From Candidatus Omnitrophota bacterium (GTDB lineage: Bacteria; Omnitrophota; Gorgyraeia; Gygaellales; Profunditerraquicolaceae): 64,000 nucleotides of DNA. Below, one piece after another: positions 41,446 through 59,798 of the stretch (the first letter of the stretch is position 1; every line of letters starts with the position of its first letter). Under the pieces are notes generated by a model, which was given only the letters and a program-made list of their open reading frames with translations, searched no databases and had not been told where the DNA came from. The translations under genes and the position numbers were made by a program. The stretch is taken from positions 140,756-204,755 of the forward strand of contig JAQUOV010000003.1 in the NCBI GenBank assembly GCA_028716965.1, given 5' to 3'.

Positions 41446-42519
41446 TTATTGCTTCAAATTATTCTTGTAGCTATCTTTGAAAGTCTGGTCATAATTCTTA
41501 GCCGCAGGATAGGATGGTAAACTCCGGAACTGTGATTGCAAATTACTGATATCTTGATTATTTGTCTGTTGATTAGCAAACATTGAAGACATAGCCTTAT
41601 CTACCGCGTAATTCGTAGGAGTATTTACAACATAGTAGAGCCCCGAAAAAGCATTCTTTATAATATAAGCGTCCTGCTTATCCACCATATTCTTCGTGAT
41701 ACTTAGCACCCCATAATTAATCAAAGCTGAAGGGACACTTCTTAAAGTAGTTATCGCGGCTCCTTGCAGCCCTTGGGTCACCCTACTAAGGTCAAAGCTG
41801 CCAATATTGGAAAAACTAAATCCGTCTGAAGAGCTACTAAGCCCTCCTACCAAACCACCTGTAACAAGACTTCCTGTTAAATTTGCTAAGCTTCTCGTTA
41901 AGGGGTCGACATTTCCTTCTTTATCCGCGCCGCTCATAAGTATAGCACCTTCAACGCTCCCTTCAAGAAGCCCTATGCCCATACCTTCAAAAGCGCTTAT
42001 TGTGCCGGCAATTGATCCGTTAAGAGTTTGAGCTACCCCTAAACCACTGCCAAAAGAACTACCATAATGTCCTGGGCTCAACCCACCACCGACAACTCCG
42101 CCTGCTATCGAGCTTATAAGAAGAGTTGACCTCGGGTCCCAACCATAATAGCTGCCTGCGACCCCTATAGCATTCTGCACCTGTCCCACAGCCGTGCTAT
42201 TTATAAAGTTAGTTCCCCAGCTATTAATGGTACTTAGGCTAGAAATCGAGTTCATAAAACCAGTTCCAAAGGTGGAATTTGGAGAAAGCGCGCCTCCAAT
42301 ACCTTGAGCGATAGCTCCACCGATTGCGGAAGAAACCAGCCCTATTGCTGTGCCTGCTGCCCATTTCCCAAAGTCAAACTCTACAAGATCCCCTCCGCCA
42401 TCCCTGCTCCTGTAAGCCAGTGAATCTCTTGGGAAAACAAATGACAAGGCAAAGGAAAATATAACGCAAACTGCGAAGACCTTAAATGCCTTTCCTTTTT
42501 TATTGCCTGAATTATACAT
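41446..42519 (-). CDS. Exported glycine/serine-rich protein (signal peptide), unknown function
   Basis: ATG 42519 with GGAGAG Shine-Dalgarno. N-terminal signal sequence, then a long G/S/A/N-rich sequence like the Gly-rich segments of the giant protein. Confidence 0.65.
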   Translation of the reverse strand: MYNSGNKKGKAFKVFAVCVIFSFALSFVFPRDSLAYRSRDGGGDLVEFDFGKWAAGTAIGLVSSAIGGAIAQGIGGALSPNSTFGTGFMNSISSLSTINSWGTNFINSTAVGQVQNAIGVAGSYYGWDPRSTLLISSIAGGVVGGGLSPGHYGSSFGSGLGVAQTLNGSIAGTISAFEGMGIGLLEGSVEGAILMSGADKEGNVDPLTRSLANLTGSLVTGGLVGGLSSSSDGFSFSNIGSFDLSRVTQGLQGAAITTLRSVPSALINYGVLSITKNMVDKQDAYIIKNAFSGLYYVVNTPTNYAVDKAMSSMFANQQTNNQDISNLQSQFRSLPSYPAAKNYDQTFKDSYKNNLKQ

Positions 42520-42554
42520 TTATTTCTCTCCTATACGCATAACCCTAAGAACTT

Positions 42555-43796
42555 TTAGGGAAAACATTTAGGGTAATCTATTTTAAACTGGTCTATCTGC
42601 TCCTGCTTCTTTTCAGCCGCGCTTCTGGCTTCAGCCGCTTTTTCTTGAAAATCTTTAGCCTGATCCTCCAAGCTTGGGATCTGTGTTTCTTCTAAATCAT
42701 CAGCTGATTGGTCTGCCTTATCCGCGGATGCATATAAAGAAGCTGCCTTATCGTGTAATTCCTGCGCTTCATCCTCCAATAACGCCGCCGCCGCATTAGC
42801 TAAAGCTGCCTTACTGCGTAGGTCCGCTATATCAAACTCCAGTTGCGCTGCTTCTTCAAGCACACAACAACAACTGCCTTCCCCATCCTCTTCACAACTA
42901 ATCATACAACCACTGCCGCTATAACAGCCCGGGATAGTTGCTTTCTTGATATTGGCTTCATTGCCTTTGTTAGCCGCTTGTGTGTTTAATTCAGCCCCGT
43001 CACTGCGCAGAAGGCCTATCTCTCCTTCCAGTTTAGCTACAATCTCCATCATATAAGGGCAAGACTGGGCCCCTGAGAAACAACCCGGGAAGTTGGTTTT
43101 GTAGAAATCAATATCCGCTTGCTTAGCATTCGCTTGCGCTTCTTTTTCCGCTGCCTGACTGTACAAAGAATCCCTTTCTTTCTCTAATACCGCTATTTCA
43201 TTCATTGTCTGGCAAGCTGGCTCGCTTCCTGATACACAACCACAACCGCTATAACAACTTGGGTTGGCTCTTTTTAAAGCATCCAACTCATTCTTTTTAA
43301 TATCTGCTTGGTCATTAAAACTCTTTGCCTCATTCCTTTTAGCCAGGGCTTGGCTGTCTTTTTGATTAGCCTTGCTTTCATAATCAGCTGCCCGAGTCCT
43401 CAACTGTTCGGCCTGTTCTCTTAATATGGCAATCTGTTTATCTAAATCCGTTGCCGCAGTATTTAAATCAAGCGCAGATTGCTCAAATGATTCCGCGCGC
43501 TCATTTAACTCCTTTATTTCGCCTTCTAATACCTCTATCTTACTTAACAGCCCGGGGCATATATCTTTAGGAGGGATAATCGGTATCGGAGGAGTACCCG
43601 GGGTATCATTATAACTAACCTCCGTAACACCTTTTGCATATTGCTCTCCTTCTCCAAATACATCCGCGCTTTCCCGAAACTTTTGCTGCATTGCCCTTAC
43701 AATATATATCCTCATCCCTATCAGCACTGCCGCTACTATGGCAATCAGGATAACGTACTCTGTAAAAACCTGCGATTTATTTACCTGCTTTTTCAT
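42555..43796 (-). CDS. Flp-family N-terminal module fused to a 360-aa coiled-coil region with repeated Cys motifs (candidate pilus-associated adhesin or tip protein)
   Basis: N-terminus SQVFTEYVILIAIVAAVLIGMRIYIVRAMQQKFRESADVFG is the same family as the small pilins. Repeated ANPSCYSGCGC, FPGCFSGAQSCPYM, IPGCYSGSGC, YPKCFP motifs between coiled-coil blocks. Confidence 0.65.
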   Translation of the reverse strand: MKKQVNKSQVFTEYVILIAIVAAVLIGMRIYIVRAMQQKFRESADVFGEGEQYAKGVTEVSYNDTPGTPPIPIIPPKDICPGLLSKIEVLEGEIKELNERAESFEQSALDLNTAATDLDKQIAILREQAEQLRTRAADYESKANQKDSQALAKRNEAKSFNDQADIKKNELDALKRANPSCYSGCGCVSGSEPACQTMNEIAVLEKERDSLYSQAAEKEAQANAKQADIDFYKTNFPGCFSGAQSCPYMMEIVAKLEGEIGLLRSDGAELNTQAANKGNEANIKKATIPGCYSGSGCMISCEEDGEGSCCCVLEEAAQLEFDIADLRSKAALANAAAALLEDEAQELHDKAASLYASADKADQSADDLEETQIPSLEDQAKDFQEKAAEARSAAEKKQEQIDQFKIDYPKCFP

Positions 43797-44691: not shown

Positions 44692-46074
44692 TTAGTACTT
44701 ATCAACATCTACTATATCGGAACCATACCTTGGATTAGGCGGATCTATGCTTCCTCTTCCTGAAAAATCAGCAACAGCATAACTGGCAGTATCGGGATAA
44801 CGGGTCTTCCATAACCCGAGGTCTGCTCCCTCATGGCTCTGTTTTGTATCAACCCGCGCGAAATGGTCATGGTCAATATCATTTATCCAGCAATCAAAAA
44901 GAAGCAAGGTATCCGCTTCACTACTGCTGCTGAATGTAAGGCCGGGCAATAATCCTGCCAAAGCTAAAACTAACAAAGCAAATGCTGCTGTTCCTGAAAC
45001 AATCGCCGCAGAGTTGCCAGCTATACCGGCAGGCAGCTCAAGCTGTGCCATCGCAGCCAAATCTATACAAGCAGCGCAACAAACAGCCGTTGGGGGCGTA
45101 GGAGGACAGCATGGAGTCTGAGGACAAGCACCAGCTAACTGATCACTAGCGAAACTGTATACTCCTGAAGCTTCAGCTAATTCTAAAGCCGCAGAATCAA
45201 TCAATAACCTGCTCGGAAGAAGTAAAAGAGTTGATATTGCCAAGGGTGGCAAGACCGTAATAGTTAACTCAAACGTATTGACATTTTTAGTAAACACATT
45301 GGAATCCACTGAATGGGACCTTCCCGGAACATCTTTCTGTCCGTCTTTCCAGGAATAATTATAGTGCCCGTTATCTCCTATGCCATCCATAAAATCAACG
45401 TAGGAATCCCTATAGCCGTTCTTTTTTAAGGTATCTGTGACATCTTCGGGAGAGCTTCCTGCCTTTAATTTAGAGCTAATACCGCTGTTAGAGAAAACAA
45501 ACCCATGCCCATTCTTGATAGCCGAACTCCTGCCTTTTATTGCCATGCGCCTGATACGAAGATAAAGATAATACTGGGCAATGCTGGCAGCGGTAATCGC
45601 AAGCCCAATAGCAATAATAGCAGTGCTGGCATCTTCTAATATTCCTGCTGCCGTCAGAGAAAGTCCGGTTGCAACATAAGCGTCGGACGCTGCAGCGCAA
45701 GAAGTAGTGCAAAAGGATGTTGCTTCAGCTGTTATTCCAAGAGATAATGCAGTTGATGCGTACGAATAAGCCATTACCAAGTTATAGAAAACAAACATGA
45801 AGGAAAGGGCTATGGACATATAAGCTGACCAATATGTAGTTATCATAAGGCTGTTTTGCACAGCCACGCTGTTAAACACATTTGCCATTATCGCCCCTGT
45901 TGCCAGGGCTCCGGCATCAGCAGCGTTGGAAGTATCTGTCTTGGTCATCGCCACCTTAGATAAGTTAACAGTAACCAGAGCCATAATTATCACGATCACC
46001 AGGACCAGTATGTATACAGGGGCAAGCTGGCCTTTGTTGTATTTATTTTTGTGATCATGGAAATACGTAAACAT
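44692..46074 (-). CDS. Membrane protein, possibly TadG-like pilus assembly protein; Cys/Pro-rich segment
   Basis: ATG 46074 with GGAGAG Shine-Dalgarno. N-terminus NKGQLAPVYILVLVIVII resembles the Tad_N/TadG N-term; CPQTPCCPPTPPTAVCCAAC. Confidence 0.45.
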   Translation of the reverse strand: MFTYFHDHKNKYNKGQLAPVYILVLVIVIIMALVTVNLSKVAMTKTDTSNAADAGALATGAIMANVFNSVAVQNSLMITTYWSAYMSIALSFMFVFYNLVMAYSYASTALSLGITAEATSFCTTSCAAASDAYVATGLSLTAAGILEDASTAIIAIGLAITAASIAQYYLYLRIRRMAIKGRSSAIKNGHGFVFSNSGISSKLKAGSSPEDVTDTLKKNGYRDSYVDFMDGIGDNGHYNYSWKDGQKDVPGRSHSVDSNVFTKNVNTFELTITVLPPLAISTLLLLPSRLLIDSAALELAEASGVYSFASDQLAGACPQTPCCPPTPPTAVCCAACIDLAAMAQLELPAGIAGNSAAIVSGTAAFALLVLALAGLLPGLTFSSSSEADTLLLFDCWINDIDHDHFARVDTKQSHEGADLGLWKTRYPDTASYAVADFSGRGSIDPPNPRYGSDIVDVDKY

Positions 46075-46076
46075 AA

Positions 46077-46349
46077 CTACTCTCCTCTTAAAACCTTATC
46101 TTCCGTCAGCTCCTCCGGTTTATGAACCGGCCACTGCAGGGTATAAGTATCAGAGGATGTCCCCGCGATTACCCTGCCGGCATTATAACTCTGCTGGCGC
46201 TGCACAATCTGCTTATTTGCCCAGAACCATATCTGCATTATCGCAGCAAACAAGAGCACTATCCCGGCAAAAACAAATGCTATTTCAATCATGCTTTGCG
46301 CAATTTCATCGCGCTTTAACTTTTTTAACCCTAAAACGGAGTAACCCAT
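46077..46349 (-). CDS. TadE-like pseudopilin
   Basis: RDEIAQSMIEIAFVFAGIVLLF matches the TadE_N consensus. Confidence 0.6.
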   Translation of the reverse strand: MGYSVLGLKKLKRDEIAQSMIEIAFVFAGIVLLFAAIMQIWFWANKQIVQRQQSYNAGRVIAGTSSDTYTLQWPVHKPEELTEDKVLRGE

Positions 46350-47113
46350 GTCTTCTCCCTGACTACCTCATTACCTGAATTACTCTGGCTATATTTATAC
46401 TGCCCGTCTGGATCAAGGTACACACCCTGCTTCACCTCATACAATATTCCCTCTTCTATTGGGGGGCTTTCATAATCGTTATCACCGGACTTCTTCTCTA
46501 CTATCTTGTACGGCACGGCAGTAACAATATCATCTTTAAGCCTAGAGGTCCTTTTATTGGTAATAGCATAGGTATCCTCGCTCTTCACATTCGTCTCGTT
46601 AAAAAGAGTATCGGACTCGGTATTCATATTTTCAGTTTGCAATACCCAATACGTCGCTCTTTCCTCGCCTGTTTCCGGATCTATCCTTTCGTGCCCTTTA
46701 ATATAATCATTATACTTAAATACTCCTTCGTCTTCATTGACCCTGAATACAAGCAAGCTGTCCGCAGATGAGCCTTTTGCCGATTTAGGTATAGCCCAAT
46801 ATACACTGGCAGAACCTGTTTGCGTAACATTACTGCCCTGCCTATAACCACCTGCCAGGTTTATCTGGTGCCTGTTCTGTAGAAGGGTATACTGCACAGA
46901 TGCCCCTGCGCCGTCTTCAGCGTATCCAGTATAGGAGTTAGCCTTCTCTAACGCCCTGCGAAAAGCCTCCATCTGCACATATTGCCTGTCATTAAGTTGC
47001 TGTATAAAAGAAAGCAGCGCCCCAAATACAAGCAATATCAAGGTGCCGAATATTGCCATCTCCGCTACTGCCTGGCCTTTCTTATTCGCGCATATCACTT
47101 TAATCACCGCCAT
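46331..47113 (-). CDS. TadE/TadG-like pseudopilin (start trimmed to ATG 47113; track ORF extended to 47227)
   Basis: KKGQAVAEMAIFGTLILLVFG, a TadE-like motif right after the chosen start. Confidence 0.55.
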   Translation of the reverse strand: MAVIKVICANKKGQAVAEMAIFGTLILLVFGALLSFIQQLNDRQYVQMEAFRRALEKANSYTGYAEDGAGASVQYTLLQNRHQINLAGGYRQGSNVTQTGSASVYWAIPKSAKGSSADSLLVFRVNEDEGVFKYNDYIKGHERIDPETGEERATYWVLQTENMNTESDTLFNETNVKSEDTYAITNKRTSRLKDDIVTAVPYKIVEKKSGDNDYESPPIEEGILYEVKQGVYLDPDGQYKYSQSNSGNEVVREKTWVTPF

Positions 47114-47540
47114 CCTCTTCAATCTCTTCGCCTGTTTCAGGGTCGTATTCAATCTCCGGGCCAGGAGCAACATATCCTTCTGAAGCAGGGACAAGATTTC
47201 CCGGCGTATCAGGAACATCTGTATCAACTATTCTACTTGTTACCTTATAGCTCACTTCCTCCAAACCTGAAACGCGCAAACCTCCACCCGTGAATAATTG
47301 GGTATCGGTAGTTAAATCATATTTACTTTCAGCATTACTTTCAGTTCTAGCAGTAGGGGAGATATCCGTCTCCTGTCCCTTTCCTATAAATACATCTGTT
47401 AAATCTTTGACCTTCCCCTGTATGCCGCGCTTAACATAAATATTCATTCCCCACAGCACCGCGGAGATTATTCCTAAAACTATCATATACTCCGCAAAAG
47501 AAGCAGAGGCCCTGCTTAGAATAACCTTCCCCTTTTTCAT
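47100..47540 (-). CDS. Flp-family pilin paralog with C-terminal acidic extension (start ATG 47540)
   Basis: MKKGKVILSRASASFAEYMIVLGIISAVLWGMNIYVKRGIQGK; starts 2 nt after the stop of the upstream gene. Confidence 0.6.
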   Translation of the reverse strand: MKKGKVILSRASASFAEYMIVLGIISAVLWGMNIYVKRGIQGKVKDLTDVFIGKGQETDISPTARTESNAESKYDLTTDTQLFTGGGLRVSGLEEVSYKVTSRIVDTDVPDTPGNLVPASEGYVAPGPEIEYDPETGEEIEEDGGD

Positions 47541-47541
47541 C

Positions 47542-47886
47542 TTACCACCTCGCCGGCTCCGCGCTAAAAGGCAAAACCTCTTCTTCGCGGCTGGTTGCGC
47601 GGCCACTTTCTATCTTGGTATCCATAATACTTTTCTTGTAATCAGTGCTATCCTCCAAATCAGTAACATAAGAATTACTTTGTATACTGACTGTGGTATC
47701 AATCGTAGTAGTAGAATCCTGCATTGCCCCGGGAGAATAAAAATAACCTCCTCCTACCTCATCAGCTGAACTCCGCATCCTGCCTGCAAGGCCACGTTTA
47801 AGATAGACCTGCATAGCGAAAAGCGCGGCCACGATTAAACTGACCATAACCACATATTCTATCGTAGATTGGGCAATATTCTTCAT
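47542..47886 (-). CDS. Flp-family pilin paralog (start ATG 47886)
   Basis: MKNIAQSTIEYVVMVSLIVAALFAMQVYLKRGLAGRMRSSADEVGG. Confidence 0.65.
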   Translation of the reverse strand: MKNIAQSTIEYVVMVSLIVAALFAMQVYLKRGLAGRMRSSADEVGGGYFYSPGAMQDSTTTIDTTVSIQSNSYVTDLEDSTDYKKSIMDTKIESGRATSREEEVLPFSAEPARW

Positions 47887-47896
47887 TTTCGCCCCT

Positions 47897-48061
47897 TTAT
47901 CTCTTGGATTCATTTAATTCCACCTGAATCTGTTTTAAGCGCGCGTTTATGGAGCGTTGTATATACTGGCGCATCGCCAATAAGGCCGTGACAATAACCA
48001 TAATCAGCATAGTATATTCCAGAAAATTCTGTGCGCGCCTGTTGTAAAAGGTATTTAACAT
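47897..48061 (-). CDS. Small Flp-family pilin, 54 aa (below the ORF-track length cutoff)
   Basis: Hand translation: MLNTFYNRRAQNFLEYTMLIMVIVTALLAMRQYIQRSINARLKQIQVELNESKR; GGGGAG/AAGGGA Shine-Dalgarno. Confidence 0.6.
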   Translation of the reverse strand: MLNTFYNRRAQNFLEYTMLIMVIVTALLAMRQYIQRSINARLKQIQVELNESKR

Positions 48062-48078
48062 TCCCTTACTCCCCTTCT

Positions 48079-48228
48079 TTATTTTAGATACGCCACACCC
48101 TTGTTGAAGTAATTATAAAAGGCGTCGCGTACGGTATCTATAAAGCCAGTAGATACTGCCAATGCCATCAGCAATGCAAGGACCACGAAATATTCAATTA
48201 CACTTTGCCCCTTAATCTTTCTTTTCAT
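48079..48228 (-). CDS. Small Flp pilin, 49 aa, canonical G/QSVIEY motif (below the ORF-track cutoff)
   Basis: Hand translation: MKRKIKGQSVIEYFVVLALLMALAVSTGFIDTVRDAFYNYFNKGVAYLK; starts 2 nt after the TadC stop. Confidence 0.65.
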   Translation of the reverse strand: MKRKIKGQSVIEYFVVLALLMALAVSTGFIDTVRDAFYNYFNKGVAYLK

Positions 48229-48230: not shown

Positions 48231-49139
48231 TTAAAACCCAAAGTTAATCCCGCCGCGGGCAAACTGCAGGATGATCGGGCCTCCCACAATAATCATTACT
48301 ACCGGCAAAATAAAGGCAAACAAAGGAAAGAGCAGTTTAATCGGCGCTTTTAATGCCATTGATTCGCCGTGCTGGAACCTCCTTACCCTCATCTCCTCTG
48401 CCTGTACATTTAAAGCCTCGGACATAGGCGTACCCATGCGGTCAGCCTGTATAAGCGTACGCACAAAAGAATGCACTTCAGGGATATCCACGCGCCAACC
48501 GAAATTCTTTAAGGCCTCCCGCCTGCTTTTGCCGACCTGCGTCTCGCGGTAAACCTCCCCTAATTCCCTGGTCAGGTCGCATGGTTTCAAATCTTTAACC
48601 ACGCGGTTTACCGCCAACATGAAATCCATACCACCGCTGACACAAAGGGTCAATAGGTCAATGATATTGGGCAGGTCACGCCGTATATTGTGCACTCTTT
48701 TGGATATCTTTTGATTAAGCCACATCTCCGGGATAAAGAAACCTATGGCCAAAGAAATAATCAAAATCATATTCGTCGGCATGTTGCTGCTAAAGAAGGT
48801 AAACGCAATAACCGGAACAAAGATTATCGCCAACACCTTAAATGCCAAGAACTCCAGCACCCCCATCGGCAACCCGGCTTTAATCAGCCTCCTCCTTATC
48901 GCCTCTATTGAAAAAGGGATACGCCTTTCAAAATCCTTAAACCTGGCGGTAAGAGGCAGCCAAGCATTCTCCGGCTTTACCGTGTATTTGTCCTGGCTTA
49001 ACTCCATCTCTACCTTATCATTATCAAATATCTGAGCAGGCAGGCGCATCTTTTCCAGGCCGAATATCTTAGAACCGAACTGCAACAGCACAAGATAGAT
49101 GCTGGCAGTTAAAAGTAAAACCACTAAAGCTAATGTCAT
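48231..49139 (-). CDS. TadC-like inner-membrane platform protein (T2SS-F domain)
   Basis: T2SSF-like LPNIIDLLTLCVSGGMDFMLAV ... TPMSEAL plus TM helices. Confidence 0.75.
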   Translation of the reverse strand: MTLALVVLLLTASIYLVLLQFGSKIFGLEKMRLPAQIFDNDKVEMELSQDKYTVKPENAWLPLTARFKDFERRIPFSIEAIRRRLIKAGLPMGVLEFLAFKVLAIIFVPVIAFTFFSSNMPTNMILIISLAIGFFIPEMWLNQKISKRVHNIRRDLPNIIDLLTLCVSGGMDFMLAVNRVVKDLKPCDLTRELGEVYRETQVGKSRREALKNFGWRVDIPEVHSFVRTLIQADRMGTPMSEALNVQAEEMRVRRFQHGESMALKAPIKLLFPLFAFILPVVMIIVGGPIILQFARGGINFGF

Positions 49140-49151: not shown

Positions 49152-50003
49152 TTATATATCCACCCTGCTTAATTTACGTATAAAAATAATACCAAGTATT
49201 TCAGAAACAATCGCGTAACCCATAAGGCCTCTTCCGAAGTTATCTTTAATGAACACGTCAAAAAAACCTGGATTCACCTTATACACAAATATCCCGAATA
49301 AGATAGGCAATATCGACATAATTATCCCCTGCATGTTTGCCTGCACGCAGAGGGCCTGGACCCTTCCAATAAGCTTATTCCTCTCCTGGATAGTATAGAT
49401 TACCCTGGAAAATGTCTGGGTAAGGTCTCCTCCGGTCTCCCTGGCTACCAGCATCGCGGTTACAACCATATCCAGTTCATCCAGGCGCATACGCTTCTTA
49501 AGCTTAGTCATCGCCTCCTCAAGAGAAACACCCATCTGCATCTGGCGTATGACAAGGCCAAACTCCTGGCTGATGGGGTTAGGCATCTCCTGCGCCAACT
49601 CCTCAAATGACTGCAAGAGGCTTAACCCCGCCTTAAGAGAGCTGGATAGAATCATTAACCCGTCAACAAGCTGCGAGGCGAATTTTTGCCTGCGTAAAGC
49701 TTCAAGCCGCTTGACGACAAAAATAGGAATAGCCAACCCCGCTGCTGCCGCCGCCGCGGCAACCCATATATTATAGGTAATGAAAAAACCCAATAACCCA
49801 CTTATTATAGGTGAAAGCACATCGATCAGCAGCAGCTTGTTTAACGTGATATCCAGAAACATGCTGTTTAACTTCGGGGTTATTTTATCCAACCTTTTCC
49901 TTTGCCAGCGATCCATTAAGGTTTCAAGAAAAGGATAAGACAGATTAATAAGATAAAAAACCCCAAAGAAGACCACTGCGAACAACAGTATCTTTGTCAG
50001 CAT
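49152..50003 (-). CDS. TadB-like inner-membrane platform protein (T2SS-F domain); alternative GTG start at 50009
   Basis: ILSSSLKAGLSLLQSFEELAQ ... VARETGGDLTQTFSRV; GGAG Shine-Dalgarno before ATG 50003. Confidence 0.75.
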   Translation of the reverse strand: MLTKILLFAVVFFGVFYLINLSYPFLETLMDRWQRKRLDKITPKLNSMFLDITLNKLLLIDVLSPIISGLLGFFITYNIWVAAAAAAAGLAIPIFVVKRLEALRRQKFASQLVDGLMILSSSLKAGLSLLQSFEELAQEMPNPISQEFGLVIRQMQMGVSLEEAMTKLKKRMRLDELDMVVTAMLVARETGGDLTQTFSRVIYTIQERNKLIGRVQALCVQANMQGIIMSILPILFGIFVYKVNPGFFDVFIKDNFGRGLMGYAIVSEILGIIFIRKLSRVDI

Positions 50004-50033
50004 TTGCACAACTCCATATTTGTACTTATCGCA

Positions 50034-50360
50034 TTACTTCCACCAGAACTCCTGGTCAGAAGTAGCAACTGATTCGCTTGTAGTTTTATCACTCGTTTGG
50101 CCATCAGTCGGGATCGTAGATACAGTTTGCTTATCTTTAAGTACCTCGCTAGATTCGGTACTGCTGGTAGTTGTATAATGCCCCGTGGTGTAACCCGGTG
50201 AAAACTGTTGGCCCATACTATCGGCACTTTCTCTTAATTTACCCTGGTATCCTCTCTTAAGATAAACCTGCATTGCGATAAGTCCGGCGACGATCACCCC
50301 GATCAAAATAGCATACTCCAATGTTGTCTGCGCCTTATTCCGCTTAAATTTGTTAAACAT
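50034..50360 (-). CDS. Flp-family pilin paralog with S/T-rich C-terminal extension (start ATG 50360)
   Basis: MFNKFKRNKAQTTLEYAILIGVIVAGLIAMQVYLKRGYQGKLRESADSMG; AAGGAGGTGA Shine-Dalgarno. Confidence 0.7.
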   Translation of the reverse strand: MFNKFKRNKAQTTLEYAILIGVIVAGLIAMQVYLKRGYQGKLRESADSMGQQFSPGYTTGHYTTTSSTESSEVLKDKQTVSTIPTDGQTSDKTTSESVATSDQEFWWK

Positions 50361-50927: not shown

Positions 50928-50961
50928 TTTTCTCACCCCCTCTCTAAGATTTTCTGAAACT

Positions 50962-51021
50962 TTACCAGTATAAAAAATAAAAAAACCGAAGTTTCAATCT
51001 CCGTTACAAGAATCTTCGGTT
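50962..51021 (-). terminator. Rho-independent terminator (minus strand) downstream of the transposase gene
   Basis: Stem AACCGAAG (50984-50991) / CTTCGGTT (51014-51021) with a 22-nt loop, then on the minus strand a U-tract of 7 T, A, 6 T. Confidence 0.6.
50967..50997 (-). promoter_or_regulatory. Possible promoter for the pilin genes, overlapping the terminator (TTGAAA, 19 nt, TATACT)
   Basis: -35 at 50997..50992 and -10 at 50972..50967 on the minus strand; spacer longer than optimal. Confidence 0.25.
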
Positions 51022-51230
51022 CTCGCTAAGCCGGCTAATATTCTGGCCTGACCTAATATAAGATAATCAAAGAAAACAAATTTTGGCGTATATAGTCCCG
51101 TGGCCTTGCGCATCCACTTTCCTCCGATAGCGGAATTGCTTTTTTCTTATTACTTTTAAAATGCACCTAAAATATAACACCTATTAGTAAGCATGTCAAT
51201 AATACTTAACCTCCTTTAAGAAAGCGTTTT

Positions 51231-52844
51231 CTAAAGCAGGCACCAAAGGCGGCTGCTGTCCGCGAAGATGATTTCCCTCTCGTTTATCCTATGACAGGCA
51301 TATTCCAGTTCTTTTAGGAAAGGATACCCCGCAGGAGGGTAGAATTTCACTATGGAGCAGCCATCCCCTCTCTTTAGAATTGTATTAAGGCTATAAAAAT
51401 GTTGTTTTGCCTCCGGAAAACACTTGTCTTTAAAGACCTCGGGCAGAAAATACCAACGCACATACAAATCCAGGATCTGCAGATAATTCTCAAAAATTGC
51501 CTTTGTTTGAGGGGGGTTTTGAAGCTGCTCTGCACATTCCGCTGATAAAAAACGTTGGGAGTTGCCTGTATAAGTAAAGAACTCTATCTTCCTGCTGTAA
51601 TCCTTGAATGTTTCCCCTAAATTCGGCCAACGGCTAAGATATATATTTGCCAGCTTTTCAGGCTGGCTACTATCAAAAACAAGGTTACTTAAAATAACCA
51701 TCCTGGTTTTTTCTGAAAGTGTGTTTCTTATTGCGCAGCCCTTTAATGTAACTGACTGTCCTGCATCTGGTTGAGATATTTCAATCTCTATTTCAGAGAG
51801 GAAAAATTTTAGCCCCACCGGCTCGAAAACGAATGGTTTGAATTCTCCTATATTTAAGATCTTACGATAATCTACAAATTGCCAGGGCCACATTGCAAAG
51901 ACAAAAAAACGCTTTTTGCCGGAATTTAACTGGATTGAGTTTAACTCTTCAAGCTTGTTCCCATAAATCTTTAAACCGGCAACATCTCTACCTTTTAACT
52001 CCAGCCCTAAGATAAAATTAAAAAATTCCTTAGTAGGGACATTGTGCCCTGGGGCGGTAAATAAAACTAAAGGGGCATTATCTTTGAAGTGCCTATTTAT
52101 GTAACGACTTGTATTGCATATAGTTGTAGAAAAAGAATATGGCGTATGGGGGGTGGACCAAACAGTATACATATTGCCATCTACATATGAACTTTCATTG
52201 TTTGAAAAATCAATTCTCATACAACGGGCCTCTTTAAACACATTCCTGGTTGCCTGGGATATAACCTTATCTAATGACGTAACTGATTGTAAATCATTAT
52301 GATACGACATTATATCTTCAAAAGAGAGATTCTTGCCAATTAGCGCCTGTAAACCACTGATCTGGTTTTCTTGAGATTTCTCAAATAAAGGGAGATAAAT
52401 TAAGCCTTCTGTCTTTGCCATAATATCGTCTATGCCAATCTTCAGGCTATTCTTAACCGATTCTATGATACTTAGGCTGCCACCGATTAAGCTATCTGCA
52501 GCTTTCAGAAGGATTGCTCCTGTACACTGTATTTCCGGCTGTGGCTGAGCCTGAAGGCTGACTTTTGGCAGTTCTTCAGCCAGCTTTTCGGGCTCAGGCA
52601 CTAATCTCAAAACCTCCTGTATGGACTCTTTTATCGAATCCTTTTTCCTAAGCCTGGACCTTCCTACAGGCATGCTCAAGCCAGCCTCCTTAAACACTGA
52701 ATTAATGCTGGATTTGGATACCTCTATCTGAAATTTCTGTAAAATTAGATGAGATAGGCTCCTACAGCTTAGCGCGGGATTGGCTCTTTTCTGATCAAGG
52801 ATAAATTGCCTTGTTTCTGGCTTTAGTTTATGAATTACACCCAT
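51231..52844 (-). CDS. Putative DDE transposase (IS4/IS1634-like) with N-terminal HTH; start at ATG 52844 (track used TTG 52874)
   Basis: N-terminal HTH-like KPETRQFILDQKRANPALSCRSLSHLIL; C-terminal YLSRWPNLGETFKDYSRKIE resembles the IS4-family YxxRxxxExxxxxxK region. Confidence 0.5.
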   Translation of the reverse strand: MGVIHKLKPETRQFILDQKRANPALSCRSLSHLILQKFQIEVSKSSINSVFKEAGLSMPVGRSRLRKKDSIKESIQEVLRLVPEPEKLAEELPKVSLQAQPQPEIQCTGAILLKAADSLIGGSLSIIESVKNSLKIGIDDIMAKTEGLIYLPLFEKSQENQISGLQALIGKNLSFEDIMSYHNDLQSVTSLDKVISQATRNVFKEARCMRIDFSNNESSYVDGNMYTVWSTPHTPYSFSTTICNTSRYINRHFKDNAPLVLFTAPGHNVPTKEFFNFILGLELKGRDVAGLKIYGNKLEELNSIQLNSGKKRFFVFAMWPWQFVDYRKILNIGEFKPFVFEPVGLKFFLSEIEIEISQPDAGQSVTLKGCAIRNTLSEKTRMVILSNLVFDSSQPEKLANIYLSRWPNLGETFKDYSRKIEFFTYTGNSQRFLSAECAEQLQNPPQTKAIFENYLQILDLYVRWYFLPEVFKDKCFPEAKQHFYSLNTILKRGDGCSIVKFYPPAGYPFLKELEYACHRINEREIIFADSSRLWCLL

Positions 52845-52932
52845 ATTTTCTCCAGATTGGACATTATTAGCCAATATTAATGTACAATAAAATAGTCAAT
52901 ATGTCAACAATAATTCAGTTTGGACATTATTA

Positions 52933-52990
52933 GGGACGCTTTTGCACCTAAAGCAGGGACGTTTCTTAGCCTAATCGGAAAACTGTCCCC
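52933..52990 (-). repeat. REP-like element copy B (inverted relative to A and C)
   Basis: Reverse complement GGGGACAGTTTTCCGATTAGGCTAAGAAACGTCCCTGCTTTAGGTGCAAAAGCGTCCC matches copies A and C. Confidence 0.8.
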
Positions 52991-53057
52991 CCCCCTCCAG
53001 GAATATTTTGTTAGATTTTATTATATTGCAGCGTCTATTATAGCGGAGGTGATAAAT

Positions 53058-53540
53058 ATGCCAAGAAGTGCAAGATTAATTCTAGATAACGCATGCTATC
53101 ATTTGATGGCACGAGGGAATCAAAGACAATATACTTTTATTGAAGATGAAGATTTCAATAAATACCTTGAGCTATTAAAACATTATAAAAACAAGTATTA
53201 TTTTAAACTGTATGGTTATTGCTTAATGCCAAACCATGTGCATTTAATAGTAGAGCTTAATAAATCATCTATACTGGGAAAGATTATGCAAGGACTGAAC
53301 TTAGCATATACAATCTGGTTCAACAAAAAATATAATAAAGTGGGCCATCTCTGGCAGGGAAGATATAAGAGTAAGCTGATTCAAAAGAATAAATACTTGT
53401 TAGATTGCATAGAATATGTGGAGTTTAATCCAATAAGATCAAATATGTGGAAATCTCCTTTTGACCATCCTTGGAGCAGCTGGAAAGAACGCATGGGATA
53501 TAAAGAAAACAGCCTCGTAGATACTCCTAACTTAAGCTAA
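53058..53540 (+). CDS. REP-associated tyrosine transposase (RAYT, IS200-like Y1 HuH transposase)
   Basis: HuH motif LMPNHVHLIVE; catalytic Tyr region WQGRYKSKLI; GGAGGTGA Shine-Dalgarno 6 nt before ATG 53058 (track start 52920 is an over-extension); flanked by inverted REP copies B and C. Confidence 0.85.
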   Translation: MPRSARLILDNACYHLMARGNQRQYTFIEDEDFNKYLELLKHYKNKYYFKLYGYCLMPNHVHLIVELNKSSILGKIMQGLNLAYTIWFNKKYNKVGHLWQGRYKSKLIQKNKYLLDCIEYVEFNPIRSNMWKSPFDHPWSSWKERMGYKENSLVDTPNLS

Positions 53541-53598
53541 GGGGACACTTCTCCGATTGGGTAGGGAAGCGTCCCTGCTTTGGGTTCAGAAACGTCCC
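53541..53598 (+). repeat. REP-like element copy C
   Basis: GGGGACACTTCTCCGATTGGGTAGGGAAGCGTCCCTGCTTTGGGTTCAGAAACGTCCC, immediately after the RAYT stop codon. Confidence 0.8.
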
Positions 53599-53942
53599 TA
53601 ATCTATTAAGGTGATGTGGTCGCCTGTTTGGGTAGAGGTTCTTTCCAGGGTTCCTGCGGGAAGTTCAATACTAAATAGCGCGTTTAAATAAATACCGCTT
53701 ATCCTAAACGGCCGCATACTGCGGATCTCCCTTGTAATTCTGTTATTGGAATCAACAAAGATTACGTCTATGGCAAATTGCATAAAGAAAGTGTGGATTG
53801 AATTACAGGGTTTGATTATTAAAGCTTGTCCTTGTTTAAGCTCCCTGCGGTTTAACAAGCCAACCATCCTTCTTAACGGAGTTTTGGCAATAGCCGCATC
53901 CTCTGCTAAGCTTGTACCGCGGTCTTTGTTGATTATTTTCAT
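53598..53942 (-). CDS. DUF192-family protein
   Basis: HTFFMQFAIDVIFVD matches the DUF192 core; the ATG overlaps the TGA of the upstream ATPase gene (ATGA). Confidence 0.65.
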   Translation of the reverse strand: MKIINKDRGTSLAEDAAIAKTPLRRMVGLLNRRELKQGQALIIKPCNSIHTFFMQFAIDVIFVDSNNRITREIRSMRPFRISGIYLNALFSIELPAGTLERTSTQTGDHITLID

Positions 53943-56110: not shown

Positions 56111-57718
56111 TTAATTATTTCTAAAGTCTATCGGTACATCAACCCAAAGTTCCTGAGATTCTATCTGGGGAGGGAAAGGAGGATAAGGCGCCTGTTTTTT
56201 GGCTATATCATAAGCAGCGTCATCTAAAACCTTATAGCCCGAAGATTGCACTAATTTGATGCCTTTTAAAGCCCCGCTTGCGGTAATATTAAGGTTCAGC
56301 CGTACATTACCTTCCCAACCCGCGTTCTTGGCTTGTTGGGGATAATAAGCTGATTTAACTATCTTTGATTTAACTATCCGTACATAATTTCCGAGACTTC
56401 CCGGTAACTCCGGCTCGTTAAAAGATTCTTGTTTTTTCTCCGCGACAGAATCGGAAGAAGGTTTCTTCCCTTTAGGCTCATCCCGAGCGACTATAGTAGG
56501 TACGAGTGTAACGAATAATTCCGTATCATCTCTTGCCCCTTGCCCTTTCCCTATTTTAGTTACTCTTTGCCTGAAGAATAAGCCTAAAACCGGGATATCC
56601 GCAAGCCAAGGGAATTTACGCAGGTCTTCTTCTGTCTTTTGCTTAATCAAGCCGCCTATTGCCATGATCTGGCCGTTATTAAGGTAAAGTTCGCTGGAGA
56701 CGGAACGCTTGCTCAAAGGATATGCCTTAGCAGTAGGCGCGTCTTCTGATCCCAGGATCTCAGCTTCCCCTACGTCACTGACCTCTACATACAAATTTAA
56801 TTTTATTCGGTCATCTTCGGTTACAGAAGGCTTTATCTTTAACTTAATGCCGTATTCTTTATATTCCACGTTTGTGGAGGAGCTGCCTCCTGTTGACACG
56901 GCTGTAGTGAAAACAGGTTTTTCACCTCCCACAAGCAATTGTGCTTCTTTATTAGTTTGACAAGATAGCCGAGGACGAGAGAGAATACGCGCCTTGCCTT
57001 CCTGTATTAAAGCATCCAGCTTTAAAGTAAATGCGGCGCGGGTTATATTGGCAACATGAAATAACTTTCCCCAGGTTGTCCCTGCCGCTTGAATACCTGA
57101 AGAACCCACTTCAGTTAAGGTCATTGAACCCGGCCATGAAAACCCAAGGGTCTTGGTAGCATCTTTATTAAGCTCCAGTATCTGCACATCAATTTCTATT
57201 ACTGTTTCCTCTTCTTTGACCTCGACAAGATCAGATATCTTATCTTTAAGGTCGTTTAAGGCCAAGGCGATCCTTTCTTTATCCTTGGAAGTCTTTACCC
57301 TGCCCAAAATAATGACTTTTCCTTCGTCCTCTTCTGCCTTGGTATAAACCTCCGGCAAATCCAATTGGCCTAATAAATTATCCACCCGCTGCTTGATCAA
57401 GGTCATATCTTCCCTTATTACTTTTATATTTTCGGACTGCTCGCCAAAAGTATCCCAGTATACCAATGAAGTCTGTCCTGGTGATTTTGCGGAAAGAGCG
57501 ATCTCTGTTTCAGTGACATTAGAAATATCCGCTACCAGGGGATTACCGATAATGACCCTGGTGGGCATTTGCGTAGGGATTATTTTGGTCTCCCCCACAA
57601 GTAATTTTAATGTTTCCTGCGGGGCGTCGCCGGCTAATATGGGACCCACCAATACCAGCATCAAGACCGGAATCAAGCTTACCATGATAAAAGCGTTTAT
57701 TTTCTTACACATATTCAT
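56111..57718 (-). CDS. Secretin (CpaC/RcpA-like) with C-terminal TonB_C domain
   Basis: Secretin core LLVGGEKPV ... FPWLADIPVLGLFFRQR ... ELFVTLVPTIV. C-terminus YYPQQAKNAGWEGNVRLNLNITASGALKGIKLVQSSGYKVLDDAAYDIAKKQAPYPPFP matches the TonB C-terminal consensus. Confidence 0.85.
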   Translation of the reverse strand: MNMCKKINAFIMVSLIPVLMLVLVGPILAGDAPQETLKLLVGETKIIPTQMPTRVIIGNPLVADISNVTETEIALSAKSPGQTSLVYWDTFGEQSENIKVIREDMTLIKQRVDNLLGQLDLPEVYTKAEEDEGKVIILGRVKTSKDKERIALALNDLKDKISDLVEVKEEETVIEIDVQILELNKDATKTLGFSWPGSMTLTEVGSSGIQAAGTTWGKLFHVANITRAAFTLKLDALIQEGKARILSRPRLSCQTNKEAQLLVGGEKPVFTTAVSTGGSSSTNVEYKEYGIKLKIKPSVTEDDRIKLNLYVEVSDVGEAEILGSEDAPTAKAYPLSKRSVSSELYLNNGQIMAIGGLIKQKTEEDLRKFPWLADIPVLGLFFRQRVTKIGKGQGARDDTELFVTLVPTIVARDEPKGKKPSSDSVAEKKQESFNEPELPGSLGNYVRIVKSKIVKSAYYPQQAKNAGWEGNVRLNLNITASGALKGIKLVQSSGYKVLDDAAYDIAKKQAPYPPFPPQIESQELWVDVPIDFRNN

Positions 57719-57726: not shown

Positions 57727-58599
57727 TTATTCCAGAACCTTGATTTCCTTGTTTAAGCCACGGTAAATCTCAACGGTTTTCTTGGGTTTAGGAGGCACAA
57801 CTACAGGTTTTTCCTGCTGCTGAAAAGCCTGCGGCATCACGGTTCTGAACAAAGTATCCCAGCTTGCCGGAGTTACCTGTTGCAACTGCGTATCCCCGGG
57901 AGAACGCAGGATCAGCCGGATTTTACCCTGCTCTTGCACAAAAACAATAAGGTTCGCCTCCTGAGGCGATAAAGCAAAGGTTATGGCCGGAGCTATTGCT
58001 GCCGCTTTTTCTTCTTTTTTCCCACCCTGCATAAACTCCTGGCCGACAGCTAAAACTAAGACATCCTGGAATAAAGGCATAGTAGCCAATTGATTTACTT
58101 GTTTTCCTTCAGCATTCATTGCCGGAATAGGCACCATACCTACGATATCAACATGATCCCCAGGCCTGATCATACCTCCGACTGAAGAGATGTTATCTAC
58201 GGGAACAGTTACCGCTCTTTTGCCTGCAGGTACCTTCATGGATAAAGACCCTATCTCGCCGGAGATTGTAACCTTGTTCAAAAGCACCTGTTCACCTTTG
58301 TCTATAGGAGCAATGGTAATCTTATCCACAACCCTGTCTATGGATGCCGCCGAGCGGGGCTGAACCATATTCCTATTAACCGTTATCTCTGCAAGCATGG
58401 ATTCTTTTATTGCGGTGCCGGCCGGTATACTCTGCTTAGCCACTACTACGGTAGTGAGATTCTTCTGGCTTTGCGCTACCATCCTTTTTGCTTCTTCGGT
58501 CTGATGCTGGATATAATTATTGATCAGCACTACCGCAATTAAACCGCAAACTCCGCTAATCAGCAACGGCAGGTATTTCTTAAAGGCTTGAATTTGCAT
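57727..58599 (-). CDS. CpaB/RcpC-like Flp pilus assembly protein (SAF domain)
   Basis: N-terminal TM; VVVAKQSIPAGTAI; RAVTVPVD...GGMIRPGDHVDIV. Confidence 0.75.
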   Translation of the reverse strand: MQIQAFKKYLPLLISGVCGLIAVVLINNYIQHQTEEAKRMVAQSQKNLTTVVVAKQSIPAGTAIKESMLAEITVNRNMVQPRSAASIDRVVDKITIAPIDKGEQVLLNKVTISGEIGSLSMKVPAGKRAVTVPVDNISSVGGMIRPGDHVDIVGMVPIPAMNAEGKQVNQLATMPLFQDVLVLAVGQEFMQGGKKEEKAAAIAPAITFALSPQEANLIVFVQEQGKIRLILRSPGDTQLQQVTPASWDTLFRTVMPQAFQQQEKPVVVPPKPKKTVEIYRGLNKEIKVLE

Positions 58600-58602
58600 A
58601 TT

Positions 58603-59529
58603 CTATCGTACCTTTTCTTCGTAAATTTCTATTTTCGTCTCGCCGGATAGTTTATTGGCAAGCTCGACTATTGCCTTCTGCTGCTTTTCAAATAACAACC
58701 ATGATTTTATGTTATCCCGTAACTCAGCCAGGGATTTAGGCTCAGATTTCTTTATACTATCAAGTTTTATTATGTAAAATCCGTCCGGCCCCTTGAATAT
58801 ACTGCTAACTCCGCCAACCTCCAGCGAGGGAGAAAAAGCTACTTCATAAAATTTTTCAGGCCTTATCCGTTTTTCGGGACTTACCTCGTAAGTCATCAAG
58901 CCTACATCGCCGCCGCGGGATGCGGTATTAGCTTTCGAATATTGCCTGGCTAAAGAAGAAAAATCCATGCCTTTAAGCAATTCAATATAAACCTGCTTGG
59001 CCTCCTCTTCGGTAGGAGTCATAATCTCCAGAATCTTCCTCTGCTCAGGATCTCTAAGCATGTCTTTATTTTGTTCATAAAAATCTTCTATCTCTTTACT
59101 GCTTACATCAATTTTCTCAATTTCCCTGCGTAATAATTCCGCGATCAAAAGGTTCATCTTGGCAGCCTCAAGCTCTTTTGCGATCTCGGGCTTTTTATCC
59201 AAACCTCTATCCAAGGCTTCCTGATATAGGATATATTTACGCACAAGCTCATCTCTCAAATATTTCACTTTCTTTTCGCTGGTATCAATCTTGTTCTTGT
59301 CCATCTTTTGCGCGGAGGCCAAAGAATTAAAATTATCAACTTCCTTGTTCAAGTCTGAAGCCGTGATATAAAAATCCCCTACCTTGGCAACTATAGTCTC
59401 GCCTACAGGAGGGAGATTTTGCTTGATTTGCTTCACAGGTTTAGCTGTGTCCATAAAAGGTATCTTGTCGCAACCCGAGAATAAAAATACGGTAAACAGG
59501 ATTACTAATAAATTTTCTAGCTTGCGCAT
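58603..59529 (-). CDS. Lipoprotein, parvulin-type peptidyl-prolyl isomerase (SurA/PrsA-like)
   Basis: Lipobox LFSGC; PPIC-type motifs RGGDVGLM ... GPDGFYIIKL; AGGAGG Shine-Dalgarno. Confidence 0.65.
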   Translation of the reverse strand: MRKLENLLVILFTVFLFSGCDKIPFMDTAKPVKQIKQNLPPVGETIVAKVGDFYITASDLNKEVDNFNSLASAQKMDKNKIDTSEKKVKYLRDELVRKYILYQEALDRGLDKKPEIAKELEAAKMNLLIAELLRREIEKIDVSSKEIEDFYEQNKDMLRDPEQRKILEIMTPTEEEAKQVYIELLKGMDFSSLARQYSKANTASRGGDVGLMTYEVSPEKRIRPEKFYEVAFSPSLEVGGVSSIFKGPDGFYIIKLDSIKKSEPKSLAELRDNIKSWLLFEKQQKAIVELANKLSGETKIEIYEEKVR

Positions 59530-59798
59530 TTATCCTCCTTGTCCGTTCCATTATTTTTTATATTGTGGACCTCGGTGATTATCTTGGTCAAAAGGTCGGC
59601 GATTTTAGCGATGAGGTATAAAAAGAAAAACAGGAATGCGTATATTGCCAAAACTACAAATCCCATCCAGCGAGGATTGGATGGGACCAAACCCATTAAT
59701 AAGGAAGCTCCTCCGGTAATGCCTAAACATAAAAAAATCCAAGCAGCAACTTTTACCGCTGTGCTGGATATACGCAAGAACCCTAAATGTTCGCGCAT
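59517..59798 (-). CDS. Small two-TM membrane protein, hypothetical (ATG 59798; track used TTG 59801)
   Basis: AAGGAGGG Shine-Dalgarno; hydrophobic helices WIFLCLGITGG and FVVLAIYAFLFFFLYLIA. Confidence 0.5.
   Translation of the reverse strand: MREHLGFLRISSTAVKVAAWIFLCLGITGGASLLMGLVPSNPRWMGFVVLAIYAFLFFFLYLIAKIADLLTKIITEVHNIKNNGTDKEDKCAS

Follow-up and report, generated by a model that had tools for sequence, protein, structure and literature searches.

Do a pilus machine and the giant gene beside it belong together, and if so, are they tied by a shared transcript or by shared control? This question is raised by a 64,000-nucleotide (nt) stretch of DNA from a Candidatus Omnitrophota bacterium (assembly GCA_028716965.1, contig JAQUOV010000003.1, positions 140,756 to 204,755 of the forward strand), which we call the window. 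A six-frame scan for open reading frames (ORFs) finds a tight minus-strand run of them, between 59801 and 41446, that encodes parts of a Tad/Flp (type IVc) pilus and is followed, in the same orientation, by a giant gene whose product has a C39 peptidase-like domain in its N-terminal part. An earlier description made from the letters alone (the sequence-only reading) had proposed that the pilus or secretion machine and a giant wall-degrading protein form one functional module. We consider it reasonably probable, though well short of certain, that the Tad/Flp locus upstream of the C39-type giant is part of an attachment and attack regulon that is coordinated by cyclic di-GMP (c-di-GMP) and divided into separate transcription units. 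The pilus and giant genes look co-regulated, not co-transcribed.

The association of Tad genes with giants, together with its interpretation as prey attachment and wall degradation, is already published, and the sequence-only reading is the published hypothesis derived anew from raw sequence. What is added here is the anatomy of the leaders, a neighbouring module of FIST sensor, histidine kinase (HK) and GGDDF regulator, the status of orf547 as a conserved cluster member, and the distinction of two layouts. The value of the addition lies in the regulatory anatomy of the two leaders, the locus itself being of known kind.

Pilus and giant genes often adjoin across Omnitrophota

With the conserved N-terminus of the giant protein, 83 related loci were gathered (numbered with the prefix L). 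The named homologues of this N-terminus are all from Candidatus Omnitrophota/Omnitrophica, and so are almost all of the 80 genome loci. C39-type giant starts whose loci extend 9 kb or more upstream number 46; in 39 of them, a co-oriented TadB, TadC or TadG gene was found within 10 kb. The reverse test was anchored on TadC in 80 metagenome loci, 17 of which extend at least 8 kb downstream; the giant N-terminus was present in 14 of these 17, its riboswitch in 12, and either or both in 15. The order of Tad and giant genes, whose conservation in relatives the sequence-only reading had named as a check, is thus kept in both directions of search. No Tad neighbour was detected for the other 7 of the 46 starts. 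Some metagenome-assembled genomes (MAGs) carry two or three such giants. As some giants lie away from Tad genes, adjacency is frequent, not obligatory.

Two layouts can be told apart. In most loci (layout A), 1-3 kb separate TadB and TadC from the start of the giant gene. In layout B, seen in the window and in L006, L007, L012, L034, L035, L044, L047, L060 and L077, TadB and TadC are followed by pilins, TadE/G-like genes and three exported proteins. Homologues of these exported proteins of the window recur upstream of giant genes, the 301-amino-acid (aa) exported protein at 26 loci, the coiled-coil protein at 37 and the Gly-rich protein at 11. The rearrangement of Tad gene order between lineages, with its two layouts, and the seven giants found elsewhere would suit neighbours without mechanistic partnership, that is, independent surface functions with separate c-di-GMP responses in a conserved repeat-rich region. 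We regard such mere neighbourhood as unlikely, and adjacency and co-orientation persist to about 50% protein identity across both layouts, which speaks against it.

The association has been described before. West-Roberts et al. (2023; bioRxiv 10.1101/2023.11.21.568195) reported a phylum-wide, type II secretion-like locus upstream of the giants, with gspD/E/F, rcpC, a Rotamase_2 peptidyl-prolyl isomerase (PPIase) and many small class III signal genes; their giants have C39 domains at the N-terminus, and SLT domains, and they proposed adhesion to prey and digestion of its wall. Nielsen & Lui (2026) found secretion or pilus genes next to 13 of the 14 largest giants, as well as many genes of mobile elements.

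Separate transcription units with their own leaders

Conserved synteny upholds the functional-module reading in part, but a single transcription unit is not supported, given the giant gene's own promoter, riboswitch and intrinsic terminator, and for this reason we do not place the Tad and giant genes in one unit. The 650-bp spacer before the giant gene does follow a co-oriented cluster, as had been noted, but it is not empty: it holds the promoter, the riboswitch, the terminator and repeat elements (Table 1). Three units result. Unit 1 comprises the small transmembrane (TM) gene, the PPIase, CpaB, the secretin with TonB_C domain, the TadZ::TadA fusion and the DUF192 gene, after which a gene for a repetitive extragenic palindrome (REP)-associated tyrosine transposase (RAYT) interrupts the cluster. 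Unit 2 starts at orf547 or at the promoter at 51199, has an aptamer-related leader with a terminator, and codes for pilins, TadB, TadC, further pilins, TadE/G-like proteins and the three exported proteins. The giant gene makes up unit 3, and its leader has a consensus promoter ahead of it, a c-di-GMP-I-class aptamer and a competing terminator. Given this separate leader anatomy, adjacency does not require co-transcription of a message of more than 40 kb with the pilus genes.

The promoter of the giant gene is of a type that recurs with the aptamer: an equivalent precedes 77 of the 80 scored aptamer hits, mostly in giant-gene leaders, at a distance of 3-26 nt and mostly 12-21, with a consensus of CTTGACA, 16-18 nt, and (TG)TTATACT or TATATT. 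Within the window, the Rfam model RF03167 matches at 41062-40970 with 62.7 bits (gathering score 59, E 2e-12), and upstream of the giants of L001, L002 and L003 with 60.8-63.8 bits. A covariance model built from these four sequences (R1) finds the aptamer in 70 of 76 evaluable relatives. Its end lies no more than 700 nt from the start codon in 65 of the 70, and in the other five it is separated from the giant gene by an exported-protein gene. In some relatives (L044 8603-9962, L060 6319-9990, L038, L059 and L074), the stop codon of the riboswitch-led exported gene overlaps or abuts the giant start, and in L044 and L060 that gene is a homologue of the window's Gly-rich protein. As the riboswitch can stand ahead of an exported gene, the unit under its control can include genes that in the window lie upstream of it.

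The predicted structure is well conserved. Across 81 aligned aptamers, 97.9% of the cells are paired and 10 pairs have changed on both sides; in 500 shuffles, neither the pairing nor the covariation score of the real alignment was ever reached, and 10 two-sided pairs were reached only once. Slid-register controls gave only 28-50% pairing. We take three columns of the alignment to correspond to G20, A47 and C92 of the Vc2 pocket. They hold G in 73/81, A in 81/81 and C in 80/81 sequences, and because of this conservation we regard the pocket as canonical, although the 'GGC' model scores best.

The aptamer competes with a terminator. Its 3' strand, CCGGGYUGCCGAAU, can pair with the segment right before the U-run, and the resulting terminator hairpin is the minimum-energy fold in 73 of the 81 leaders. 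The two alternatives are nearly isoenergetic in the window: -38 kcal/mol with the terminator formed and -37.3 kcal/mol with the aptamer kept, a difference of only 0.7 kcal/mol. Further downstream, GGGGTAAGGGG(R)A lies about 95-160 nt past the aptamer in most giant-gene leaders and in some loci can form a hairpin with the bases after it; it is followed by a pyrimidine-rich stretch and then by TATTAGGTAA just before the ATG. L002 carries a second c-di-GMP-I riboswitch (2334-2415; RF01051, 37.5 bits) 7 kb upstream of its C39 giant, in a locus without Tad genes, where it precedes a short protein (2601-3497) with a weak C39 match.

The pilin operon has a leader of related type, preceded by its own promoter. 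A model built from 11 pilin-leader sequences of relatives, the window excluded (R2), matches the window with 86.4 bits (E 3e-20), and the Rfam model RF01051 gives only 17 bits at a gathering score of 35. The R2 family shows covariation in the first hairpin and has matches at the corresponding site of L164-L167 and of many metagenome loci; weaker R1 matches lie about 2 kb upstream of TadC in the TadC-anchored loci. After every leader of this kind that was inspected comes a U-run, in most cases with a hairpin that can be recognised as a terminator, and next the first Flp gene. In the closely related L164, position 47 is G, the true 'GGC' type, and the ligand pocket of the pilin-leader family seems to be drifting. 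That each unit has its own promoter and leader is what one would expect of neighbours that are not partners; that the riboswitches ahead of the two units are related argues the other way.

A neighbouring signalling module

On the plus strand, diverging from the Tad cluster beyond a tRNA-Glu gene, the window encodes a FIST sensor, a kinase and a response regulator (RR) with a domain of the GGDEF family (Table 1). Four relatives, L164, L165, L167 and L168, with PPIase identities as low as 53%, have the same divergent FIST-HK-RR module beside their Tad cluster, and the regulator's motif GGDDF is conserved in all of them. This conservation suggests a family of functional but non-canonical cyclases, as far as the motif allows such a judgement.

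Proposed mechanism and points against it

Together, our data suggest the following mechanism. By the usual logic of riboswitches, binding of c-di-GMP would block formation of the terminator and thereby switch on the giant gene, and likewise the pilin operon in those relatives whose pilin leader is intact. A candidate for the source of the signal is the FIST-kinase-GGDDF response regulator. The pili would mediate attachment, and the giant protein, Sec-targeted and membrane-anchored, would act at the site of contact. The model predicts that expression of the pilus and of the giant protein rises together with c-di-GMP. Seymour et al. (2023; PMC10066038) reported that the Tad complex is expressed in a co-culture of V. 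archaeovorus and that giant-protein peptides are up 3-fold in attached cells of this species (PMC10066038); an attachment-linked switch fits these published proteomics. The leader of the giant gene is a short RNA that can be synthesised, so that its binding of c-di-GMP is assayable without culture, and the promoter and terminator are assayable in vitro.

Several points weigh against this account. Prey attachment and wall attack are suggested by domains and by the literature on another species, and both c-di-GMP binding and expression control by the leader RNAs are predictions from sequence. The best Rfam family of the giant-gene aptamer, RF03167, is the 'GGC' variant, for which we know of no established ligand; an altered ligand specificity was considered on the strength of this match and found unsupported, since the defining position, 47, is A in all 81 aptamers. 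The riboswitch is missing in 6 of 76 giants. Unfiltered scoring with the covariance model revealed none in five riboswitch-less giant loci, L048 among them, and the leaders of L015, L023, L029 and L053 keep the promoter, cleanly lack aptamer and terminator, and mostly retain the downstream motifs. The seven of 46 giants without a Tad neighbour also count here. The regulator has GGDDF in place of GG(D/E)EF, a non-canonical motif that makes its cyclase activity uncertain. Finally, no terminator was detected in the stretch of the window that separates the last Tad gene from the giant promoter, so that some read-through from the Tad genes into the giant gene is possible.

The pilin leader of the window itself adds to these points, as it departs from its family in several respects. 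It lacks the 5' strand of P1, it has substitutions at A48, G121 and C125, which are invariant in the 11 relatives and include the C92 equivalent, now a G, it reads CAAGGCC instead of CAAAGCC, and it has A at the G20 equivalent, a position that is also variable in the relatives. With the 5' strand of P1 lost and the core substituted, c-di-GMP control of the pilin operon may have been lost or altered here; judged by its sequence, the leader looks degenerate and may be inactive or changed in this genome. A reading of the A at position 20 as a sign of a cyclic GMP-AMP (cGAMP)-type, GEMM-Ib-like riboswitch was not adopted, because this position varies in the relatives (G/A/C) and other core positions have changed.

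Composition of the pilus cluster

The features of the locus are collected in Table 1. The minus-strand gene order that the sequence-only reading had listed between 59801 and 41446 is real: Pfam and NCBIfam models back CpaB, the secretin, TadZ-TadA, TadB, TadC and the TadG-like gene, and the eight Flp-like pilins, the PPIase and the DUF192 gene are confirmed as well, all upstream of the giant ORF. Two of its statements have to be withdrawn. The cluster is not "complete", because a prepilin peptidase and TadD are absent from the window, and not everything lies on one strand, since the RAYT gene is on the plus strand.

Table 1. Features of the locus, with positions numbered from the first letter of the window
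Feature	Position	Strand	Basis or remark
Response regulator with GGDEF-family domain, motif GGDDF	62953-63930	+	Pfam; motif read
HisKA/HATPase kinase	61512-62990	+	Pfam
FIST sensor	60287-61510	+	Pfam; divergent from Tad cluster, beyond tRNA-Glu
tRNA-Glu(CTC), upstream boundary of cluster	60104..60178	-	Rfam and ARAGORN
Small membrane protein, 94 aa	59517..59801	-	ORF; no Pfam match
Parvulin-type PPIase lipoprotein (Rotamase_2, SurA_N)	58603..59529	-	Pfam
CpaB/RcpC	57727..58599	-	PF16976 E 4e-26; TIGR03177 173 bits, cut-off 71
Secretin (RcpA/CpaC-like) with C-terminal TonB_C	56111..57718	-	PF00263, PF13629 (T2SS-T3SS_pil_N), PF03544
TadZ-like ParA/MinD domain fused to TadA/CpaF ATPase, 720 aa	53939..56101	-	Pfam
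DUF192 protein	53598..53942	-	PF02643
RAYT	52920..53599; likely start 53058, stop 53540	+	PF01797 E 5e-18
12-mer AATGTCCAATCT, second pair	52854-52865, 52917-52928	-	Just upstream of likely orf547 start
orf547, helix-turn-helix (HTH) protein with distant Tn5-like fold	51231..52874; likely start ATG 52844	-	Homologues, AF2 model, Foldseek
Promoter of pilin operon, sigma-70 type, TTGACA-17-TATATT with TG	51171..51199	-	Sequence match
Pilin leader, homologous to c-di-GMP-I-like aptamer family	51016..51154	-	Model R2
Terminator-like hairpin ACCGAAG...CTTCGGT and U-run	50974..51021	-	Same arrangement in relatives
Three Flp-like pilin genes	50754-50936, 50389-50733, 50034-50357	-	ORFs; A-QSTLEY-type motif
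TadB	49152-50009	-	PF00482 T2SSF
TadC	48231-49139	-	PF00482 T2SSF
Four further Flp-like pilin genes	47100..48228	-	Motifs read directly; no Pfam match above threshold
Two TadE-like pseudopilin genes	46331-47227, 46077-46349	-	N-terminal motif; PF07811 only E 0.09
TadG-like gene	44692-46074	-	PF13400 29.1 bits, cut-off 22.3
Exported protein, 301 aa	43777-44682	-	No Pfam domain
Pilin-headed Cys-rich coiled-coil protein, 413 aa	42555-43796	-	No Pfam domain
Gly-rich exported protein, 357 aa	41446-42519	-	No Pfam domain
12-mer AATGTCCAATCT, two spacer copies	41384-41395, 41424-41435	-	Between last Tad gene and giant promoter
Solo copy of RAYT-flanking element, 85% identical	41315-41373	-	blastn; spacer upstream of giant promoter
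Promoter of giant gene, sigma-70 type, TTGACA-17-TATACT	41082..41110	-	Sequence match
c-di-GMP-I-class riboswitch aptamer	40965..41067	-	Rfam RF03167
Intrinsic terminator, 5' arm = aptamer 3' strand, then U-run	40927..40983	-	Folding
Leader motif GGGGTAAGGGG	40831..40841	-	Conserved in relatives
Giant gene, at least 13,599 aa, runs off window edge	2..40798	-	ORF open from 40801 to position 2

At the upstream end, an ORF of 80-88 aa takes the place of the small membrane protein in L164, L165, L166 and L168. The PPIase is identical (100%, full length) to a MAG protein listed at NCBI under 'Candidatus Omnitrophica bacterium'. The secretin-TonB_C fusion is kept in L164-L168, and both it and the fusion of the TadZ-like ParA domain to TadA are conserved in every relative inspected; the TonB_C domain could link the secretin to peptidoglycan or to another partner in the envelope. 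Within the TadZ-TadA protein, the AAA_31/ParA domain spans aa 2-172 and the T2SSE domain (PF00437, E 1e-60) aa 366-646. Its best NCBIfam match is TadA (TIGR03819) with 330 bits, under the equivalog cut-off of 373. The DUF192 gene follows TadA in all relatives for which this stretch was inspected (L053, L164-L167).

All eight pilin-like N-termini have the Flp processing motif [G/A]-Q-x-x-x-E-Y followed by a hydrophobic helix. Among the first three pilins, the class III signal model PF04021 (Class_IIIsignal) matches the first with 26.1 and the third with 18.8 bits, one above and one below the cut-off; the second has no Pfam match, and no Flp model matches any of the pilins. An A24 prepilin peptidase (TadV/CpaA) was found neither among the ORFs of the window nor in the 10-kb flanks of L001-L003 and L164-L168, and it may be encoded elsewhere in the genome. 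TadD/RcpB was likewise found neither in the window nor in the 10-kb flanks of relatives. In L165 (7824-9710), L166 (1199-3469) and L168 (7457-9649), the cluster is headed by proteins of 628-756 aa with tetratricopeptide repeats (TPRs), and it is possible that these proteins of the relatives are TadD analogues. The window has no such TPR gene there; upstream of the small TM gene lies only tRNA-Glu.

Transposase-like genes and repeats

The sequence-only reading had placed an insertion of an insertion sequence (IS) together with a RAYT gene between the DUF192 gene and the pilins. A RAYT gene has indeed been inserted, but the 547-aa ORF beside it is a conserved single-copy member of the cluster. 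We reject the view of orf547 as an IS insertion, since it is single-copy, conserved and syntenic; a recent insertion of orf547 and RAYT that split the operon is rejected too, as this description holds for RAYT only, and there the event is old in the lineage. In the RAYT-free loci L053, L166 and L167, the order is TadA, DUF192, orf547 homologue and pilins, and in every locus that reaches this stretch orf547 stands after DUF192 (or after RAYT where that is inserted) and before the pilins. The family numbers 354 proteins, from Omnitrophota wherever the source is named, with each cluster on 1-3 contigs. It has no Pfam domain. The window's orf547 is identical over the 480 annotated aa to the MAG protein PHT50_02535. 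A comparison of orf547 with a 576-aa ORF in L003 showed no similarity.

An AlphaFold model of orf547 (pLDDT 80, from a 33-sequence alignment) has a Pax-like HTH at its N-terminus, and its best match in the PDB by Foldseek is the Tn5 transposase (E 3e-4, probability 0.95, with a TM-score of only 0.2). A stretch of the form Y-x2-R-x5-E-x7-K resembles the YREK signature of IS4, and D232 and E421 are invariant. If the modelled fold is taken at face value, orf547 is possibly a domesticated cluster member of transposase descent.

The RAYT gene scores 73.2 bits with NF047646, below the cut-off of 80. By blastn, an element of 45-59 nt lies on either side of it as inverted copies (52947-52990 and 53541-53599), and three copies of this element are visible in the 64 kb. 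It stands at the same site in L164, L165 and L168, relatives with 69-84% PPIase identity, so its insertion is not recent. Nine related loci also have a RAYT gene, in one or the other orientation, in the interval from TadC to the giant gene. The recurrence of RAYT genes and repeat elements at the junction fits neighbours without partnership in a repeat-rich region. The same 12-mer, AATGTCCAATCT, at orf547 and at the giant promoter region is evidence to the contrary.

This 12-mer has four copies in the window, where 0.44 would be expected, and 43 of 168 related loci contain it without mismatch; most of these copies are co-oriented, and they lie largely at the same two places. The copies flanking orf547 are in direct, not inverted, orientation. 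From these two places, AATGTCCAATCT encloses, as direct repeats, the module that starts with orf547 and ends with the last Tad gene, and it could be an operator for the HTH protein orf547 or a recombination site. A broader version of our model can be built on this: an Omnitrophota-wide contact or attachment switch in which the FIST-sensor kinase and the GGDDF regulator make c-di-GMP, class I riboswitches with promoters and terminators of their own turn on pilus and giant together, and a domesticated transposase may regulate or rearrange the AATGTCCAATCT-bracketed cassette. We put this version forward tentatively, considering it doubtful as a whole.

The giant protein and alternative roles

The giant protein begins with a hydrophobic segment and VAQA|VEY, which resembles a Sec-type signal or anchor, and has a C39 peptidase-like domain at aa 182-266 that keeps the invariant Cys and His. 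It also has TPRs and about 15 predicted hydrophobic segments, with SLT at about aa 10,490-10,585 and PG_binding_1 at about aa 12,194-12,230; Pfam finds nothing beyond C39, TPRs, SLT and PG_binding_1. Many riboswitch-led proteins have a basic stretch with (W/G)G-x-KG(G/E) just before the hydrophobic segment (L002, L038, L044, L059, L060, L065, L074, L077 and L078). The C39-like domain of the giant may conceivably process these Gly-rich N-termini.

The peptidase-like domain also bears on a different relation between pilus and giant, in which the Tad-like machine secretes or displays the giant protein, and the giant or fragments released by C39 pass as cargo through the secretin. Besides the invariant Cys and His, this would be in keeping with the tight synteny, conserved in both directions, with the name type II secretion-like that West-Roberts et al. 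gave to the locus, and with the lack of a predicted hydrophobic segment in the first about 5,900 aa after TM1. We nevertheless hold it to be very unlikely. The parts are those of a Tad pilus (a CpaB equivalog, a TadA-type ATPase, eight Flp-like pilins and TadE/G-like proteins), and the giant N-terminus is of the Sec signal or anchor kind, not that of a prepilin or of a substrate of the type II secretion system (T2SS). The about 15 hydrophobic segments argue for anchoring in the inner membrane, and giants exist without an adjoining Tad locus.

Calling the giant "wall-degrading", as the sequence-only reading did, has as its basis a single SLT domain and a single PG_binding_1 domain among 13,599 aa. 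We judge it quite unlikely that these parts remodel the cell's own wall for assembly of the pilus or of the giant and do not attack the walls of prey. Dedicated lytic transglycosylases commonly accompany envelope-spanning machines, and this favours a role at the own wall, as do the single copies of the two domains, both located after membrane segments, and the intact peptidoglycan pathway that Omnitrophota are reported to keep. The published interpretation, by contrast, prefers degradation of the prey wall; the sole prey studied experimentally in the cited literature is a Methanosaeta archaeon. We retain pili for attachment and a giant protein acting at the contact site as the preferred reading.

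Comparison with known systems

Omnitrophota giant genes are among the longest known, and the window is one more instance of a Tad-giant pair. It shares with the locus of West-Roberts et al. the secretin, the ATPase, two GspF/T2SSF genes, RcpC, the Rotamase_2 PPIase and the small class-III-signal genes, more than 10 genes directly upstream of a C39-headed giant gene, and the phylum. In the portions of West-Roberts et al., Seymour et al. and Nielsen & Lui that were accessible, promoters and riboswitches are not mentioned, and c-di-GMP is tied to the giants only via downstream PilZ genes and GGDEF domains inside the giants. No paper that combines 'riboswitch' with Omnitrophota giant genes was found in the searchable full-text literature.

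Like the Tad/Flp systems of Aggregatibacter and Caulobacter (Cpa), the locus has CpaB, an RcpA/CpaC-type secretin, a TadA/CpaF ATPase, a TadZ-like ParA domain, TadB, TadC, pilins with G/A-XXXX-EY and, with less certain assignment, TadE/F/G-like proteins. It differs from them in the TadZ-TadA and secretin-TonB_C fusions and in its eight pilin paralogues, which match the class III signal model PF04021 and no Flp model; it is without TadV and TadD and has a PPIase, DUF192 and orf547 in addition. The RAYT gene resembles the RAYT/REP systems of the Y1 transposase family in its Y1_Tnp domain, its occurrence as a single gene, its inverted short repeats and the solo copy elsewhere, but its score is just below the NCBIfam cut-off, and several lineages have such a gene again at the Tad-giant junction or close to it.

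With Vc2-type c-di-GMP-I riboswitches (Vibrio cholerae; RF01051, RF03167), the giant-gene leader has in common the two-hairpin architecture and the equivalents of G20, A47 and C92. It differs from known members in that the best model is the 'GGC' variant, that the gene is tens of kb long and that ligand binding is predicted. Type IV pili under the control of a c-di-GMP riboswitch are described for Clostridioides difficile (Bordeleau et al. 2015, J Bacteriol 197:819, as cited in PMC13234629). Common to both cases are a c-di-GMP riboswitch in the leader of a pilin operon and an ON switch that ties high c-di-GMP to attachment, which for our locus is a prediction. In C. difficile, a Gram-positive bacterium, the riboswitch is reportedly of class II and the pilus T4a-like. 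Here, by contrast, a class I-like aptamer goes with a Tad-type pilus in a diderm, and a giant gene is paired with it.

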